Assembly (NCBI GenBank): GCA_002293845.1 | Contig: DBEA01000010.1 | Location: forward strand, 565-64,564 | Reading direction: 5' to 3' | DNA length: 64,000 nucleotides | Origin: Patescibacteria group bacterium UBA918 | Lineage (GTDB): Bacteria > Patescibacteriota > Minisyncoccia > Phycocordibacterales > UBA918 | Shown: positions 1,997-19,359 of the stretch, piece after piece | How the letters are laid out: each line of letters opens with the position of its first letter | How positions within the stretch are numbered: position 1 is the first letter of the stretch | The notes under the pieces: model-generated | What the model was told of the DNA's origin: nothing | The model's input: only the letters and a program-made list of their open reading frames with translations | Databases searched by the model: none | Made by a program: the position numbers and the translations under genes

Positions 1997-2053
1997 ATTC
2001 GTTAAAAACGAATTTCGAAATGGTATTATGTAGCATATATTCATGCTACGAAA

Positions 2054-2713
2054 ATGAAACAGATAAAGAAGCAAGAAGCGTTTAATTTAAGAAAAAGTGG
2101 TTATTCCTTGAGAGAGATTAGTAAAATGTTAAATATCTCTCAAAGTACAGCCTCTGTCTGGCTCAGAGGTTTGAGGTTGCCCCCTTCTGCGATCAAAGAA
2201 TTGGCAAGGAAGACAGAAAATGGCAGGAGACAAGCTTCGATCGCTAGAAGGGATGAAACGCGCAAGGCCCTAGCAAGCGCAGCGACACTGGCGCAGGAAA
2301 CGAAAAAAAGGGCAAAATATGACAGGGCTGATCTGAAGATAATGTGCGCCATGATCTATCGGTGTGAAGGTTCAAAAACCATGAACGATAGCGCGCTAGT
2401 GTTTACGAATTCAGATCCAGAATTAATATCGTTTTTTCTTAGATTGTTCAGAAAAACCTTTAAAGTAAATGAGGAAAGGTTCCGGGTTTTAGTCCATTTA
2501 CATGACTATCATGACCAAGAAACACAGTTGCGTTTTTGGTCCAAAGTCACTAATATACAACGGTCGCAGTTTTTAAGGCCTTATAAGAAAAGTAATACCG
2601 GCAAGCATAAGAGGTCGAATTACGAAGGGTGTGTTTCATTGCGCTATCACGATGTGAGGATAGCCAGAGAAATACAGGCCTTGGCCAGAATTGTGATGAA
2701 ATCGGGCCTATAG
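2054..2713 (+). CDS. HTH-domain protein with a C-terminal single-motif LAGLIDADG-like endonuclease domain
   Basis: N-terminal HTH (YSLREISKMLNISQSTASVWL). C-terminal LKIMCAMIYRCEGSK resembles the LAGLIDADG motif-2 of the two other HEG ORFs (LRGLIQTDGSV, LRGLYEAEGSL). AT-rich. The TAG stop (2711-2713) lies inside tRNA-Trp. Confidence 0.45.
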   Translation: MKQIKKQEAFNLRKSGYSLREISKMLNISQSTASVWLRGLRLPPSAIKELARKTENGRRQASIARRDETRKALASAATLAQETKKRAKYDRADLKIMCAMIYRCEGSKTMNDSALVFTNSDPELISFFLRLFRKTFKVNEERFRVLVHLHDYHDQETQLRFWSKVTNIQRSQFLRPYKKSNTGKHKRSNYEGCVSLRYHDVRIAREIQALARIVMKSGL

Positions 2714-2774
2714 TTTAATGGTAAAACAGCCGCCTCCAAAGCGGCCGTTCCCTGTTCGAGTCAGGGTGGGCCCG
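2704..2774 (+). tRNA. tRNA-Trp (anticodon CCA)
   Basis: Cloverleaf read by eye: acceptor GGGCCTA/TGGGCCC, D stem GTTT/AAAC, anticodon stem GCCGC/GCGGC with loop CTCCAAA, T arm CCCTG-TTCGAGT-CAGGG, discriminator G. No encoded CCA. Confidence 0.8.
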
Positions 2775-2776
2775 CA

Positions 2777-3731: not shown

Positions 3732-4325
3732 TCAACATATTTGCTCGTTCTCTTTTTTCAAACTTATCTCGGCGATAAATCTATTTACGTCACGAGATAA
3801 CCTCACCGTGTATTTAGGGCGGCTGCTTTTTTGGCTCGCGCTATAAATTTTTGGTTGATAGCCGAGTATTTCCATCATACTCTTCACATCCGTGGCCAGA
3901 TCTAAAATATTATTGGTAAAATTCACCATCTTGTAACCGCGGTCTGAATAGACACTCCCATCTGTCTGTATTAATCCACGAAGGCAAGCTGAGATGTACA
4001 TATTGTCGCGAAATATCCAACCAGGTACTCTGACGTTCTGTTTAAATTTTGAGCCCTTACCCACTTTCCACGGCATATAGATATCTAGTGCGTTTGAATA
4101 CACACTAATGTTGAAATAGGTATCGCGGGGACCGTTTACTTTACTGACTTTATTTTTGGGAAATAGTAAGTTAAGGGCAATACATATATCGTTTTCTATG
4201 CCTGGATAGGCCGCGTCACATGTTATTCGAAGACGTGTGGCACGTTTATTGGGTCTGGATAAATTACCATCGCCCATAGCGACTCCAATGATATATGCCA
4301 AATTTACTTTGGCAGCCATTAGCAT
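3732..4325 (-). CDS. LAGLIDADG homing endonuclease (two-motif, free-standing)
   Basis: Motifs LAYIIGVAMGDGNL and LRGLIQTDGSV. AT-rich. TATAAT 6 nt upstream of the ATG. Lies 35 nt downstream of tRNA-Leu on the same strand. Confidence 0.8.
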   Translation of the reverse strand: MLMAAKVNLAYIIGVAMGDGNLSRPNKRATRLRITCDAAYPGIENDICIALNLLFPKNKVSKVNGPRDTYFNISVYSNALDIYMPWKVGKGSKFKQNVRVPGWIFRDNMYISACLRGLIQTDGSVYSDRGYKMVNFTNNILDLATDVKSMMEILGYQPKIYSASQKSSRPKYTVRLSRDVNRFIAEISLKKENEQIC

Positions 4326-4359
4326 GCCTAGATTATACCCTGGTTGTGCTTCAAAATTG

Positions 4360-4443
4360 TGCCGCGGGAGAGACTTGAACTCTCATGACTGTTTAGGTCG
4401 ATGGGTTTTGAATCCATTGCGTCTACCATTCCGCCACCGCGGC
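4360..4443 (-). tRNA. tRNA-Leu (anticodon CAA), type II with long variable arm
   Basis: Reverse complement GCCGCGGTGGCGGAATGGTAGACGCAATGGATTCAAAACCCATCGACCTAAACAGTCATGAGAGTTCAAGTCTCTCCCGCGGCA. Anticodon loop TTCAAAA, T arm GAGAG-TTCAAGT-CTCTC, acceptor GCCGCGG/CCGCGGC. Close to E. coli leuX. The anticodon stem has one A-C mismatch, or I misread one base. Confidence 0.7.
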
Positions 4444-16756: not shown

Positions 16757-17418
16757 GAGAAAAGACGGTGTTCTTGATCCGCCATGGTGAGACGCGGGCT
16801 AACAAAAGCTACCGTCATCAAGGGCCGATGGAACCTTTGACGGAACGCGGGCGCGAGCAGGTGCGCGCCCTGATCGCTTATTTAAGATCGCAAAACATAG
16901 ACACTCTGATAGCCAGCGACTTCGATCGCGCTCGCGAGACCGCCGATCTGATCGGAAGGGAATTAGGACTCACGTACTCGATCGAGCCGTCGGTCCGCGA
17001 ATTCATTCGGCCGACGTCGCTTTACGGTCGACATTACTTCTCGCCCTCTTCTCTCCGGTACATCCTCGATCTCTATCAAAATCGTTTGAATCTGTTATGG
17101 AACCGCGAAGGAGCGGAGAATCTCGCTCATGTGCGGGGGCGCGTGCGCGACGCCCGGATCATGATCGAATCTTTGCCGGGGAAGCGGGTGGCCGTGGTGT
17201 CGCACCGCATCTTCATGACCATGTTCACGGAGACCGTCTGTTACGACCGGCCATTATCGCTATGGAAGTTCTTCTGGGGTTTTGTAGGGCGAAAGAAACT
17301 GCCGAACTGCGCCGTACTAGAATTCACTTGTTCGTCGTCCGATAGGGGTGACGTGTGCACCTGGCGACTCGAAAAAACCCTCGTTCCGCCGTATAATGTC
17401 ACTCGTACTAAAATATAG
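16741..17418 (+). CDS. Histidine phosphatase family protein (phosphoglycerate-mutase-like)
   Basis: RHG motif FLIRHGETRAN and a second catalytic region. The true start is probably the GTG near 16777, after GGAG. Confidence 0.65.
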   Translation: MRGEIGEKTVFLIRHGETRANKSYRHQGPMEPLTERGREQVRALIAYLRSQNIDTLIASDFDRARETADLIGRELGLTYSIEPSVREFIRPTSLYGRHYFSPSSLRYILDLYQNRLNLLWNREGAENLAHVRGRVRDARIMIESLPGKRVAVVSHRIFMTMFTETVCYDRPLSLWKFFWGFVGRKKLPNCAVLEFTCSSSDRGDVCTWRLEKTLVPPYNVTRTKI

Positions 17419-17442: not shown

Positions 17443-17718
17443 ATGCATCAAGGAAATTGGAAGTGTAGCGGTTGCGGCGCCACCATCACCGAATTGCCGT
17501 TCGAACCGAGAAGTACCGAAGGATTGAAGTGCCGCGACTGCCACTCCAAGTCTCGCGGCAACGCGCCGCGTCAGAACTCCGACCGTGGCGATCGGCAAAT
17601 GTTCGAAGGAAACTGGACGTGCGCTGGTTGCGGCGCGGCCATCACCAAGCTGCCGTTTATGCCGAGGGATACCACTAACCTCAAGTGTATCGACTGCTTC
17701 AAATCAAGCCGGACATAA
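17443..17718 (+). CDS. Small protein with two tandem CxxC-x17-CxxC zinc-ribbon repeats
   Basis: Internal duplication GNWKCSGCGATITELPFEPRSTEGLKCRDC / GNWTCAGCGAAITKLPFMPRDTTNLKCIDC. Confidence 0.5.
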   Translation: MHQGNWKCSGCGATITELPFEPRSTEGLKCRDCHSKSRGNAPRQNSDRGDRQMFEGNWTCAGCGAAITKLPFMPRDTTNLKCIDCFKSSRT

Positions 17719-17776
17719 GGAAGGGGCGTGCAGGCGCAAGTCATCTAATGGTAGAAAATTTTGCTATTATTAGTGA

Positions 17777-18481
17777 ATGGCGCATATCTCGTGGAGCAAG
17801 GGTCACACAAAGGATACTCACCCCTCGGTTCGGAAAATTTCCGAGACGATGAAGAAGAGGAAGGTGGATAATTTTGCCGCATGGCGTGAGCAAGCCAAGA
17901 AAAAAGGAAAGTTTAAGTCAGTTTACAAGGCTTTGCCGGAGGGCGGCGACTTAGCCGAGTTGATCGGTGTGATTTTGGGTGACGGTCATATTCAAAAGTT
18001 TCCTCGCACCGAAAGGTTGCTGATCTTTTCAAACGCCAACAACCCGGGCTTTGTAAAGCGTTATGCTGATATAGTGGAAAGGTTGTTTGAAAAGAAGCCT
18101 TACGTGTACAAGCAAACATCGAAGAACTGTATACGTATTAGTCTGTACGAAAAACATATCAGTCAGCGATTAAAGATCCCTACAGGTGCGAGAGGTAAGT
18201 TATATTTCTCGGTTCCGCGTTGGGTTATGCGCGATAAAACCTATGTAAAGCGTTACCTTCGAGGTTTGTATGAGGCAGAAGGAAGTCTATCGTTTCATTC
18301 CGCCACGTACACGCATAAATTCATCTTTTCCAATAGAAACGTGTCGCTATTGAAAAATGTCGAAAGATTGCTTAAAGTACTAGGGTTTTCACCCCACTCA
18401 AACAAAGAGAGTGTCCAACTGTCCAGAAAGGACGAGGTGAAGAAAGCCGCCCAGTTGCTACGGTTCAGAGTCTACAAATAA
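17777..18481 (+). CDS. LAGLIDADG homing endonuclease (two-motif, free-standing)
   Basis: LAELIGVILGDGHI and LRGLYEAEGSL. TATTAT 6 nt upstream of the ATG. The stop lies 6 nt before tRNA-Gln. Confidence 0.8.
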   Translation: MAHISWSKGHTKDTHPSVRKISETMKKRKVDNFAAWREQAKKKGKFKSVYKALPEGGDLAELIGVILGDGHIQKFPRTERLLIFSNANNPGFVKRYADIVERLFEKKPYVYKQTSKNCIRISLYEKHISQRLKIPTGARGKLYFSVPRWVMRDKTYVKRYLRGLYEAEGSLSFHSATYTHKFIFSNRNVSLLKNVERLLKVLGFSPHSNKESVQLSRKDEVKKAAQLLRFRVYK

Positions 18482-18487
18482 ATATAT

Positions 18488-18558
18488 TGCCCGGTGGTGT
18501 AAAGGTAGCACGCATGGTTCTGGCCCATGAAATCGAGGTTCGATCCCTTGCCGGGCAG
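18488..18558 (+). tRNA. tRNA-Gln (anticodon CTG), with U1-A72 as in bacterial tRNA-Gln
   Basis: TGCCCGG...CCGGGCA acceptor, anticodon stem CATGG/CCATG with loop TTCTGGC, T arm CGAGG-TTCGATC-CCTTG. Confidence 0.75.
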
Positions 18559-18613
18559 CAAATTTGAGCGACGCTTGAAGAGCATCGCTGTAACATCCGG
18601 TTGTTTCAAAAAA

Positions 18614-18637
18614 GTCCCAACTTCGTCCTAGACGGCC
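18614..18637. repeat. Copy A of a 24-nt direct repeat CCAACTTCGTCCyAGACGGCC flanking dgkA
   Basis: gtcccaacttcgtcctagacggcc; the second copy is at 19009..19033. Confidence 0.5.
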
Positions 18638-18658
18638 AATCGAAGGTATAATGTTCTC

Positions 18659-19000
18659 ATGAAGTACTGGATTAGAAGGTTGTCACATCCATTTCGTGGA
18701 TTGAAGTATGCGTTTGTCCATGATGACGCTACTCAAATAGAATTTGTCTTCGGCCTAATTGGTTTACCAATTGTCTATCGTCTGTTCGACATATCGGTTA
18801 GCGAAATACTGCTACTTACATTTTGCTGGTTTTTTGTGATGGTCACCGAACTACAAAATACGGCCATGGAAATAGCACTGACCAAGATTCATCCAGAACA
18901 TGACAAGGAAATTGGGCTTAGTAAAGACCTAGCTTCTGGGGCTGTGATATGGGCATCAGTATTTGGGTTGGTCTGTCTCGGTTTCGTGATCCTGAACTAG
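18659..19000 (+). CDS. dgkA: Diacylglycerol/undecaprenol kinase (prokaryotic DgkA family)
   Basis: TELQNTAMEIAL and SKDLASGAVIW match the E. coli DgkA EILNSAIE and SGRAKDMGSAAV blocks. TATAAT 6 nt upstream of the ATG. Confidence 0.8.
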   Translation: MKYWIRRLSHPFRGLKYAFVHDDATQIEFVFGLIGLPIVYRLFDISVSEILLLTFCWFFVMVTELQNTAMEIALTKIHPEHDKEIGLSKDLASGAVIWASVFGLVCLGFVILN

Positions 19001-19008
19001 TTAATCAT

Positions 19009-19033
19009 GGTTCCAACTTCGTCCCAGACGGCC
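19009..19033. repeat. Copy B of the dgkA-flanking direct repeat
   Basis: ggttccaacttcgtcccagacggcc, followed by hairpin CCAGAC-n10-GTCTGG. Confidence 0.5.
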
Positions 19034-19359
19034 CCCTAGTCTGGACTATGTTTAACCCATACTGTACAGTCTTTTTAGATACGTATTCCGGCCACGGGAA
19101 TCGTGGTGCTGTAAAGTGAGAGATCTGATGAACATTCTAAGGCGACGGGGAATCGAGAACCCATCTGACCATCTCGTTTCCCCTGTAGGGAAGCGACTGC
19201 GCGCTCCGGAAAGCGAGATATTCCGCGCCGCCGATGAGGTGGAGGCCGGGTTTGCCACGCTTCGCTATCTATGAATCCCGAAACGGGCGGTCTGGAAAGG
19301 CCGCCCTTTCACTTTATACAAAATCCTCCTTCATCCCGGACGGCCAAGGAGAAACACTG

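Follow-up and report, generated by a model that had tools for sequence, protein, structure and literature searches.

The LAGLIDADG gene described here, from a window of 64,000 nt of UBA918 contig DBEA01000010.1 (the whole stretch analysed; coordinates are window positions, position 1 being its first letter), is best read as a free-standing homing endonuclease gene (HEG) that targets tRNA-Gln, with mostly vertical inheritance and patchy loss, and we regard this reading as probable. The usual view is that homing endonucleases can reside in an essential, conserved gene only by means of an intron or intein. The bacterial lineage considered here appears to show another solution for an RNA gene, in which the HEG interrupts a tRNA gene but has a complete tRNA at its own 3' end, so that splicing is unnecessary. 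The layout recurs in about 80 related species of ultra-small CPR bacteria, having been maintained in dozens of them, and is accompanied by what looks like an arms-race signature, compensatory recoding of the tRNA D stem; the genome has two more families, each devoted to another tRNA.

All features named in the first-pass annotation of the window are present where it placed them (Table 1). The LAGLIDADG ORF at 17777..18481, the TATTAT 6 nt before its ATG and the tRNA-Gln 6 nt past its stop were confirmed; ARAGORN and Rfam also agree with the tRNA-Gln(CTG) call, of which only the end coordinate needs correction, 18558 being one base short of 18559. The description of the ORF as AT-rich holds as well (41-47% G+C vs 55-58% upstream). 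The downstream DAGK gene has an equally low G+C content. What had been overlooked is an orphan tRNA-Gln fragment upstream. Because this orphaned 5' piece lies upstream and the tRNA downstream, the ORF is located within a tRNA-Gln gene and not, as the annotation had it, merely beside one.

Table 1 Features of the window discussed in the text
Feature	Position	Strand	Remarks
HTH and putative single LAGLIDADG-fold domain ORF, 219 aa	2054..2713	+	last 10 nt overlap tRNA-Trp(CCA)
tRNA-Trp(CCA), partner of the HTH-LAGLIDADG-fold ORF	2704..2775	+	
Second LAGLIDADG gene, 197 aa	3732..4325	-	PF14528, 1.4e-12; 34 nt downstream of tRNA-Leu(CAA); TATAAT 6 nt before ATG
tRNA-Leu(CAA), partner of the second LAGLIDADG gene	4359..4443	-	
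Tandem zinc-ribbon protein, 91 aa	17443..17718	+	PF23477 and TIGR04272, two copies; a neighbour outside the element
Orphan 5' fragment of tRNA-Gln gene	17741..17755	+	window keeps the recognisable D-arm part only: TCATCTAATGGTAGA; canonical TCGTCTAATGGTAGGA
-10-like hexamer TATTAT, putative leaderless mRNA-tRNA promoter	17765..17770	+	6 nt before ATG
LAGLIDADG endonuclease gene, free-standing, two-domain (monomeric), 234 aa	17777..18481	+	PF14528 LAGLIDADG_3, E = 3.5e-8 (Pfam)
tRNA-Gln(CUG), complete	18488..18559	+	ARAGORN; Rfam RF00005, 57.7 bits; 6 nt past ORF stop

The position of the ORF was compared in 80 species-level Paceibacteria (CPR) genomes with a homologue of the 234-aa protein; below, loci with the ORF are called LAG+ and loci without it LAG-less. 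In 74 of the 80, tRNA-Gln(CUG) follows on the same strand and starts mostly 1-9 nt (mode 3-4) after the stop codon, whereas the remaining six contigs end within 80 nt, five of them showing the first bases of the tRNA. The earlier view that the juxtaposition of HEG and tRNA is not coincidental is thus borne out, the junction being position-exact and family-wide in independent genomes. The few nucleotides between stop codon and tRNA are too short for a separate promoter, and the tRNA-Gln of LAG+ genomes probably lacks one of its own. Since an HMM (A1) scan of the LAG+ loci found no relative beside Thr, Gly, Asp, Met, Ser or Pro tRNAs, the A1-type LAGLIDADG gene is tied to one tRNA. Contigs often break at the tRNA-Gln/LAGLIDADG locus.

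The left edge of the insertion is marked by the orphan, which in most loci lies some 30 nt upstream of the ATG and covers the acceptor strand and the D arm, ending near nt 24. The canonical tRNA-Gln(CUG) gene sequence includes TGCGGGATCGTCTAATGGTAGGAC..., and the 16-mer TCTAATGGTAGGAAAA is found about 30 nt before the ATG with at most two mismatches in 50/81 loci and at most four in 63/81. The full 23-mer TGCGGGATCGTCTAATGGTAGGA is present upstream of the ORF, with five edits or fewer, in 23 loci, one of which (L030) matches at 23/23 positions; outside these positions, in LAG+ loci totalling 798 kb and LAG-less loci totalling 768 kb, this 23-mer is almost confined to tRNA-Gln genes. The fragment was absent from 120 LAG-less loci. 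It retains the canonical D arm, and its conservation exceeds that expected of a neutral relic, which suggests a function of its own. Downstream of the orphan lies the -10 box: TAnnnT occurs within 16 nt of the ATG in 62/67 loci, the commonest spacer being 6 nt. A consensus promoter scan called no -35 element for the TATTAT of the window, and the orphan itself was rejected as a -35 element on account of its spacing and its misfit to TTGACA.

That the ORF encodes an endonuclease-type LAGLIDADG protein, as first proposed, is supported by its sequence and by its predicted structure. It contains the motifs LIGVILGDG and LRGLYEAEG, preceded at the N-terminus by some 55 aa that form a conserved basic extension. 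In 20 diverse homologues (56-68% identity) D69 and E168 are invariant, so that each motif helix ends in a catalytic acidic residue. The AF2 model (pLDDT 89.9) has as its best Foldseek match I-DmoI (9.5e-9, aligned across both domains), with I-Tsp061I and the intein endonuclease domains of PI-PfuI and TliVMA also among the top matches; WhiA is also among the matches but ranks below the true endonucleases. Neither an HTH match (Pfam) nor PF14527 was found in the ORF, and libraries of defence systems gave only weak 'HEase' matches. Judged by fold and catalytic residues, the protein can be classified as a monomeric, two-motif LAGLIDADG homing endonuclease, with cleavage predicted. It has more than 1000 homologues, the best 120 having identities of 56-73% and lengths of about 232 aa, and the family, with a mean column identity of 68%, is strongly conserved. 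It probably represents a lineage specific to Paceibacteria (CPR) with the tRNA-Gln(CUG) gene as its fixed home. Only two of the 80 copies are disrupted (an in-frame stop in L061 and a frameshift in L079), which together with the strong conservation is unusual for a purely selfish gene gone to fixation.

The resident tRNA of the window has the D stem GTG/CAC in place of the canonical GTC/GAC. In all loci compared the D stem is Watson-Crick paired, and that of the resident tRNA has been altered through compensatory substitutions. A D stem other than GTC occurs in 66/75 LAG+ vs 57/118 LAG-less loci (p = 8e-9, phylogeny not corrected for), and the types TGC, GGC, ATC and TTC occur in 44/75 vs 6/118 (p = 7e-17, likewise not corrected for phylogeny). 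The contrast is weaker within a low-GC, CPR-like subset, where the canonical D stem was found in 11/22 LAG-less vs 7/75 LAG+ loci (p = 9e-5). Since 7-9 LAG+ loci still have the canonical D arm in the resident tRNA, a change of the D stem alone cannot be the whole of the immunity.

LAG-less relatives with the same prfB-ftsE-ftsX synteny carry an uninterrupted tRNA-Gln and no ORF; these empty sites include L176 (ftsX stop 59 nt before the tRNA), L134, L128 and L123. L112 is a further empty site. The four that have both FtsE and FtsX (L176, L134, L128 and L123) nest among LAG+ loci in the FtsE+FtsX tree, and in metagenome loci sampled by their tRNA the ORF was present in 0/118, with a search pattern that fits 60/75 LAG+ tRNAs. 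The existence of related genomes with the same synteny but without the ORF makes the mobile-element reading of the LAGLIDADG gene, which was part of the first interpretation, plausible. Within the species of the window no presence/absence polymorphism was seen, 3/3 same-species contigs carrying the ORF. Distances between the proteins correlate weakly but significantly with those of the host markers FtsE+FtsX (Mantel r = 0.32, 0/5000 permutations), the large clades being roughly congruent, and are uncorrelated with distances between the resident tRNAs (r = -0.09). Because the protein tree tracks the host markers and not the resident tRNA, recent horizontal movement has no positive evidence in its favour; vertical descent has probably prevailed over a long period, with the element lost here and there. 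Movement of ORF and tRNA as one unit was rejected on the uncorrelated distances. For the pairs L043/L077 and L004/L006, horizontal transfer was considered on the basis of incongruence at the protein level and rejected, the divergence of the DNA being similar in ORF and flanks; the comparisons of these pairs show indels or an inversion between ORF and flanks.

The only other tRNAs in the window, Leu(caa) and Trp(cca), also have neighbouring ORFs of LAGLIDADG type, putatively so for Trp(cca). The 197-aa ORF is 29% identical to the 234-aa ORF (BLASTP 1e-17) and belongs to a family with 315 homologues; in 5/5 loci that were looked up, tRNA-Leu(caa) is located directly upstream of the family's gene. 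The Leu-linked ORF and the Trp-linked ORF, the latter with a putative LAGLIDADG fold, stand for two more families, each with a tRNA of its own, and the association with tRNA is specific to each LAGLIDADG family. The three-fold recurrence of the HEG-tRNA pairing, to which the first-pass annotation had drawn attention, is therefore real in that the other two tRNA neighbours behave alike. Downstream of the Leu-linked ORF no tRNA-Leu fragment was detected in six loci, and a search for tRNA-Trp fragments upstream of the Trp-linked ORF gave only an inverted 3'-like piece in L206, which did not score above the shuffle maximum.

These observations can be combined in a tentative mechanism. The enzyme would recognise and cut the canonical tRNA-Gln gene around the junction of D arm and anticodon stem, after which the ORF would be copied in by repair, with the tRNA-derived sequences on either side serving as homology arms. 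A full tRNA copy would be regenerated or retained downstream, and tRNA function would thereby be preserved, while this copy may evade cleavage by its altered D stem. Transcription of the tRNA would start at the endonuclease promoter, with the tRNA forming the 3' end of a leaderless mRNA from which RNase P frees it, and the orphan half-site by the promoter may double as an operator for the protein. If true, this represents a new mode of HEG persistence, a source of natural meganucleases with tRNA-gene targets and a natural case of a nuclease that may constrain the evolution of tRNA sequences.

Different explanations of the same anatomy deserve consideration. The first-pass annotation proposed a mobile cassette in which the upstream 91-aa ORF is an accessory factor that lands with the LAGLIDADG gene beside tRNA genes. 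The ORF indeed contains two tandem copies of a zinc ribbon, with the repeat unit GNW(K/T)C(S/A)GCGA(T/A)IT(E/K)LPF(E/M)P...LKC(R/I)DC, and belongs by its matches to Pfam PF23477 zf_Tbcl_2 (55.1 bits, cut-off 27, two stretches) and NCBIfam TIGR04272 'CxxC-x17-CxxC' (54.9 bits, cut-off 36) to this family, having its four cysteines as two CxxC pairs, although the spacer counts 18 residues and not the 17 given earlier. The two genes share a strand with 58 nt between them, L079 and three same-species contigs have the pair as well, and some members of the LAGLIDADG family have a fused N-terminal zinc finger, of another kind than the ribbon (a weak Ros/MucR match). Against this, a regex scan found a zinc ribbon near the LAGLIDADG gene in only 2/80 loci (directly upstream in L079 and 1.7 kb downstream in L009), so that 78 have no such ORF nearby; the HEG is conserved without the zinc-ribbon gene, the converse of the separation that the annotation had named as telling against its proposal. 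Furthermore, the orphan falls between the two genes, a sigma-70-like promoter match of its own (TCGAAA-17-TATAAT, 17369..17397) precedes the zinc-ribbon ORF, and the PF23477/TIGR04272 family of small zinc-binding proteins also occurs in archaea, including Methanosarcina, with zinc binding shown for family members in M. mazei (PMC12704099). The zinc-ribbon gene is thus a neighbour unrelated to the LAGLIDADG element and outside any cassette; for the family as a whole the joint cassette is refuted, and it is very improbable as an explanation. Even less credence can be given to an ORF encoded in a self-splicing tRNA intron with the orphan as its 5' exon. A 5' tRNA piece does lie upstream, and group I introns are common in tRNA genes of Patescibacteria, some with HEGs (PMC13011429), but Rfam detected nothing other than the tRNA between 17300 and 18700 at E <= 1, the downstream tRNA is complete by itself, the stop codon is just 1-9 nt away from it, and the -10 box lies downstream of the orphan, the acceptor strand of which is often unable to pair with the resident 3' end (TGCGGGA vs TGGAGGG in L030). 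An origin from two adjacent tRNA-Gln(CUG) genes, of which the upstream copy was destroyed by the HEG from nt ~25 on while the downstream one remained, is a variant of the main model without an element-borne duplication. It would give the same final anatomy of orphan 5' piece, ORF and complete tRNA, and the lack of correlation between tRNA and protein divergence fits an independent host gene, but we consider it improbable: none of the LAG-less relatives sampled has tandem tRNA-Gln genes, and the tight, constant junction of stop codon and tRNA is easier to understand if ORF and tRNA 5' end came together.

Domestication carries more weight, although on balance we find it unlikely. An ancient insertion into tRNA-Gln would have been kept for use by the cell and would no longer move, the protein acting either as a regulator of the tRNA-Gln/ORF promoter, with the orphan D arm as operator, or as a nuclease against incoming canonical tRNA-Gln DNA. 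Such a role would agree with the protein's having kept its length and sequence over a long time in many candidate orders, the rarity of disrupted copies, the host-phylogeny signal in the protein distances, the preservation of the wider prfB-ftsE-ftsX synteny, the conservation of the orphan at a fixed distance from the -10 box, and the fact that the only visible promoter for the tRNA comes from the ORF. However, domesticated relatives such as WhiA have lost the catalytic acidic residues, both of which are invariant here; the protein also lacks the C-terminal HTH of WhiA, and the gene is dispensable, as illustrated by the LAG-less lineages nested among LAG+ ones and by the tRNA-sampled loci, all devoid of the ORF. 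A joint reading, quite unlikely, makes the three tRNA-linked genes more than selfish: Paceibacteria would retain them as nucleases against canonical tRNA-Gln(CUG), tRNA-Leu(CAA) and tRNA-Trp(CCA) genes, the cell's own copies being recoded by compensatory stem changes, in a restriction-like or toxin-immunity-like manner. The recoded tRNA gene would then be the equivalent of 'methylation', the orphan an operator or decoy, and the target foreign DNA, whether from phages, competitors or the epibionts' host bacterium.

With respect to the preferred reading, that of a free-standing HEG targeting tRNA-Gln, several known systems allow comparison. I-DmoI, I-Tsp061I and the endonuclease domains of PI-PfuI and TliVMA likewise have two LAGLIDADG domains in one chain, with a catalytic acidic residue closing each motif helix. 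I-DmoI and its kin are archaeal and encoded within rRNA introns or inteins, whereas the present ORF is free-standing in a bacterial tRNA gene and carries the extra N-terminus; the 234-aa protein resembles these enzymes only marginally in sequence (17-19% identity; E = 0.02 to I-DmoI). The free-standing HEGs of fungal mitochondria, LAGLIDADG ORFs flanked by C-terminal duplications of cob or atp6, also lie between a functional and an orphaned partial gene copy, and neither layout requires an intron, since regeneration of the gene takes place at the DNA level (PMC6279837). The fungal elements are organellar and sit in protein genes, of which they duplicate the 3' part; in the present case the setting is bacterial, the gene a tRNA gene and the orphan 5', with the functional copy downstream on the ORF promoter. 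LAGLIDADG insertions in rRNA genes of CPR bacteria (PMC11270868) share phylum, superfamily and the preference for conserved RNA genes, but are often in group I introns, and tRNA is not mentioned in that paper, whereas the genes found here are intron-less and tRNA-specific. Association of a free-standing gene with tRNA genes is also known from phage T4 SegB and the 'intronless homing' of free-standing phage HEGs, which spread by cutting HEG-less alleles and co-converting the flanks (PMC2988022, PMC13096335). SegB, however, is a GIY-YIG enzyme encoded between the genes of a phage tRNA cluster, with neither a split tRNA nor an orphan, and on a phage instead of a chromosome. Genomic islands and prophages that integrate at tRNA genes use the tRNA as a landing site too, with a duplicated part that restores function. 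They rely on tyrosine integrases, and what they duplicate of the tRNA is its 3' part; the LAGLIDADG element is a single gene without integrase and it is the 5' part that is duplicated. A search for published descriptions of LAGLIDADG genes in or beside the tRNA-Gln, tRNA-Leu or tRNA-Trp genes of CPR bacteria found none, subscription journals being outside its coverage.

WhiA is a LAGLIDADG-derived transcription factor with a C-terminal HTH, in which the catalytic acidic residues are missing. It shares the LAGLIDADG fold with the 234-aa protein, which differs in keeping the catalytic residues and in having no C-terminal HTH. Several database records nevertheless name these proteins 'WhiA', which looks like annotation spill-over, and the preferred reading, if true, would explain a class of 'WhiA' and hypothetical annotations in CPR genomes.

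The link between the LAGLIDADG ORF and tRNA-Gln is a property of the whole protein family, and the arrangement of homing endonuclease gene (HEG) and tRNA is both more structured and more widespread than supposed in the first-pass annotation. A species-level scan with one genome per species yielded 80 loci with a homologue (LAG+ loci), in which the protein is 49–67% identical to that of the window and which include Kaiser-, Yonath-, Niyogi-, Taylor-, Nomura-, Zambryski-, Nealson-, Azam-, Jorgensen- and Portnoybacteria. A tRNA-Gln(ctg) lies 3' of the ORF and on the same strand in 74 of the 80, with a gap between stop codon and tRNA that is mostly 1–9 nt (mode 3–4; 6 nt in the window); in the six exceptions the contig stops less than 80 nt from the gene, and the first tRNA bases are visible in five of these. 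No relative of the family was found beside Thr, Gly, Asp, Met, Ser or Pro tRNAs in an HMM scan (A1) of the LAG+ loci. In about one in nine contigs the 3' terminus falls within the tRNA-Gln or coincides with its end (loci L006, L018, L031, L035, L051, L053, L065, L066 and L067), which suggests strain heterogeneity or a repeat in the assemblies.

All features described earlier for the window were recovered, i.e. the double zinc-ribbon ORF, the LAGLIDADG ORF with its TATTAT box, and the tRNA-Gln. The window has three tRNA genes and each of them has a LAGLIDADG-type neighbour; this three-fold recurrence, which had been held to argue against coincidence, is genuine and involves three separate families, each specific for a single tRNA species. 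The G+C content of the LAGLIDADG ORF is 41–47% as compared to 55–58% upstream, and the low values run on into the downstream diacylglycerol-kinase gene (18659..19000, PF01219; region 18560..19100), so that the compositional dip is wider than the inserted gene.

Features of the tRNA-Gln-linked locus in the window
Feature	Position	Remarks
Zinc-ribbon sigma-70-like match TCGAAA-17-TATAAT	17369..17397	promoter scan
Zinc-ribbon ORF, 91 aa	17443..17718	two tandem units; PF23477 and TIGR04272
Orphan tRNA-Gln D-arm remnant TCATCTAATGGTAGA	17741..17755	between zinc-ribbon stop codon and -10 box
-10-like TATTAT	17765..17770	6 nt ahead of LAGLIDADG ATG
LAGLIDADG ORF, 234 aa	17777..18481	Pfam PF14528 LAGLIDADG_3
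tRNA-Gln(ctg)	18488..18559	ARAGORN; Rfam 57.7 bits

The proposal that the zinc-ribbon gene forms one mobile cassette with the HEG did not hold. Its tandem build was read correctly; the ORF scores 55.1 bits with Pfam PF23477 (cut-off 27, two stretches) and 54.9 bits with NCBIfam TIGR04272 'CxxC-x17-CxxC' (cut-off 36). Counted directly, each of the two units has a spacer of 18 residues instead of 17. Only two of the 80 LAGLIDADG loci have a zinc ribbon of the same kind nearby, L079 immediately 5' of the LAGLIDADG gene and L009 1.7 kb 3' of it, and none was found in the remaining 78. In the window the zinc-ribbon gene has a sigma-70-like match of its own; it is a bystander of the LAGLIDADG gene. 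In the species of the window itself the pair is retained on three contigs, which is unsurprising among close relatives. Zinc binding by members of this gene's family was described for Methanosarcina mazei (PMC12704099). The Gln-linked ORFs of loci L030, L034, L037, L054, L057 and L069 carry a fused N-terminal domain of ~67 aa (CKLCG...H..xH); such a fused CxxC...HxxxH finger gives a weak Ros/MucR match (E about 1e-3) and is a module different from the tandem zinc ribbon.

The LAGLIDADG protein has more than 1000 homologues, of which the best 120 are 56–73% identical, nearly all 232–234 aa long, and derived from Parcubacteria/Paceibacteria metagenome-assembled genomes. Across 20 aligned homologues column identity averages 68%; the acidic residues closing the LAGLIDADG motifs (D69 and E168) are invariant, and so is a large part of a basic, ~55-aa N-terminal extension. 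The AlphaFold model (pLDDT 89.9) has I-DmoI as its top Foldseek match (9.5e-9), with further matches to I-Tsp061I and intein endonuclease domains and with WhiA ranking below these, and I-DmoI is also the closest solved structure by sequence (E = 0.02). The motifs with their invariant residues and the I-DmoI-like model identify the protein as a LAGLIDADG enzyme of the monomeric, two-domain kind, with its active-site signature intact and its activity predicted. The WhiA identity used by several databases was rejected; the JGI label 'DNA-binding transcriptional regulator WhiA' on many members of both LAGLIDADG families (protein records P0015, P0051, P0121 and others) is probably a mis-annotation, since the catalytic residues are kept and the C-terminal HTH of WhiA is absent.

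Alignment of the upstream regions on the ATG revealed a conserved block, (TTGCGGGA)TCGTCTAATGGTAGGAAAA, followed by a TATAAT-like box ~6 nt before the ATG. It represents the 5' portion of a tRNA-Gln gene, from the 5' acceptor strand through D stem and D loop into the start of the returning D-stem strand; the likeness ends at about nt 24, beyond which the sequence is A-rich and diverged. Its 16-mer core is present upstream with at most two mismatches in 50 of 81 loci and with at most four in 63, and the full 23-mer (at most 5 edits) in 23 loci, the match being 23/23 in L030. Bar about three stray matches, the 23-mer occurs in 798 kb of LAG+ loci only in tRNA-Gln genes and at this upstream position, and in 768 kb of loci that lack a homologue (LAG-less) only within tRNA-Gln genes. 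Judged from sequence, the ORF thus lies within a tRNA-Gln gene, the upstream 5' piece being an orphan and the resident tRNA downstream being complete. The -10 box, found in 62 of the 67 loci with a spacer that is most often 6 nt, is located 3' of the orphan, a position that points to a leaderless mRNA. Since there is no room for a tRNA promoter, the tRNA would be co-transcribed with the ORF and then released by RNase P.

An intron-encoded ORF was considered and rejected: no intron was found at the locus in an Rfam search even at E <= 1, the downstream tRNA is complete, and the -10 box lies 3' of the orphan. The acceptor strand of the orphan and the 3' acceptor strand of the resident would be unable to pair in many loci (in L030 the orphan acceptor is TGCGGGA and the resident 5' strand TGGAGGG). 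In the finger-bearing family members the orphan lies upstream of the lengthened ORF. A doubled orphan was seen 30–70 nt upstream of the ORF in L071 (TTGCCAGATCGTCTAA then TTGCCGGGTCATCTAGTGGTAGGAAAA) and L052, which would fit two successive insertion events.

Metagenomes were sampled with a tRNA-Gln(CUG) pattern that is also matched by 60 of the 75 ORF-linked tRNAs, and none of the 118 tRNAs thus sampled had the ORF upstream. Some 50 LAG+ loci share a wider synteny of prfB-ftsE-ftsX, then 0–5 kb, then ORF and tRNA, and several of the LAG-less sampled loci have a CPR-like look and the same prfB-ftsE-ftsX synteny. The LAG-less locus L176 has an uninterrupted tRNA-Gln 59 nt past the end of ftsX, with a similar layout in L134, L128 and L123, and in L112 there are 14 nt between the end of dnaX and the tRNA. 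Empty loci fall amid occupied ones in a neighbour-joining tree of FtsE+FtsX (L176 beside L011 and L013, L134 beside L050), and two of 80 copies are disrupted (an in-frame stop in L061, a frameshift in L079). The nested empty loci, the absence from the sample and the disrupted copies thus mean that the LAGLIDADG gene is dispensable and patchy. The correlation of protein distances with FtsE+FtsX distances is weak but significant (Mantel r = 0.32; 0 of 5000 permutations), and there is none with resident-tRNA distances (r = -0.09). Seemingly incongruent cases are no evidence of transfer, since DNA divergence in them is alike in ORF and flanks, with indels or an inversion between. An old insertion with mainly vertical inheritance and losses fits these data, and re-invasion may have occurred now and then.

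The ORF-tRNA-Gln module is inverted relative to prfB-ftsE-ftsX between the close relatives L004 and L006 (FtsE+FtsX distance 0.09); L043 and L077 are set apart by an indel of 1.2 kb immediately 5' of the module and share no homology 3' of the tRNA. A small GIY-YIG-like ORF (~80–100 aa, YVYxL...GxT...R...H, by eye) occurs beside tRNA-Gln(CUG) in two LAG-less loci, ending 14 nt inside the tRNA in L123 and lying ~0.5 kb downstream in L176, and the tRNA-Gln site may attract other nuclease genes.

The orphan D arm, TCGTCTAATGGTAGGA(C), is also the commonest tRNA-Gln(CUG) D arm across the sampled bacteria, the D stem being GTC in 61 of the 118 LAG-less cases. The resident D stem of LAG+ loci is Watson-Crick paired in every case and seldom canonical (GTG 21, TGC 15, GGC 14, ATC 12, GTC 9, TTC 3, GTA 1). 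Non-GTC stems are found in 66/75 LAG+ versus 57/118 LAG-less loci (p = 8e-9), and TGC, GGC, ATC or TTC stems in 44/75 versus 6/118 (p = 7e-17); within a low-GC CPR-like subset, the canonical D arm occurs in 11/22 tRNAs without the ORF versus 7/75 with it (p = 9e-5; kinship is ignored in all three tests). The functional copy has thus been recoded repeatedly by compensatory change, and the canonical sequence survives in the dead one. Such a pattern would be expected if the functional copy were escaping a D-arm-reading nuclease, which provides a candidate testable target and an apparent nuclease–tRNA arms race.

The sequences show the layout of the locus, a fixed site with empty alleles, a catalytic signature that is intact, a conserved -10 box and a recoded D stem. 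From these a mechanism can be envisaged in which the enzyme would cut canonical tRNA-Gln genes near the junction of D arm and anticodon stem, and the ORF would be copied in by repair with the tRNA-derived flanks on both sides as homology arms. The orphan length of ~24 nt is close to the minimum for RecA-dependent recombination. The complete tRNA downstream would be regenerated or retained, turn resistant, and thereafter rely on the ORF promoter. Since the orphan is conserved beyond what is expected of a neutral relic and its distance to the -10 box is fixed, it may double as operator for the LAGLIDADG protein, in the way that I-TevI represses its own promoter. The main rival explanation, a domesticated LAGLIDADG protein, would account for the strong conservation of the protein, the few pseudogenes and the vertical signal, but invariant catalytic residues and a dispensable gene argue against it.

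Fold and active site of the Gln-linked protein, with activity predicted, are shared with monomeric LAGLIDADG homing endonucleases. The closest layout is that of free-standing HEGs in fungal mitochondria, located between a gene and its orphaned partial duplicate (cob, atp6; PMC6279837), whereas in the present case the ORF resides in a bacterial tRNA gene and it is the 5' part that is orphaned. In CPR bacteria, LAGLIDADG genes occur in rRNA insertions (PMC11270868), and group I introns, mostly without HEGs, in tRNA genes (PMC13011429); the orphan-ORF-tRNA arrangement is absent from both descriptions, and no published description of it was found in the literature covered, subscription journals lying outside that coverage.

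The Leu-linked ORF (3732..4325, minus strand) shares 29% identity with the Gln-linked enzyme; its family has 315 homologues of ~190 aa. A tRNA-Leu(caa) is located directly upstream on the same strand in all five loci looked up (L201–L205), and the neighbourhood parB - tRNA-Leu - ORF - miaA is conserved. No tRNA-Leu fragment was found downstream of the ORF in these loci or in the window (3732..4443, minus strand), and in both a TATAAT lies ~6 nt before the ATG. Upstream of the Trp-linked ORF of locus L206 (~100–125), tgcgggcccacgaggaatcgaacc resembles an inverted 3' piece of tRNA-Trp (T arm and acceptor strand), with a score that does not exceed the shuffle maximum, and near 2005..2035 the window has merely a decayed trace of this piece.
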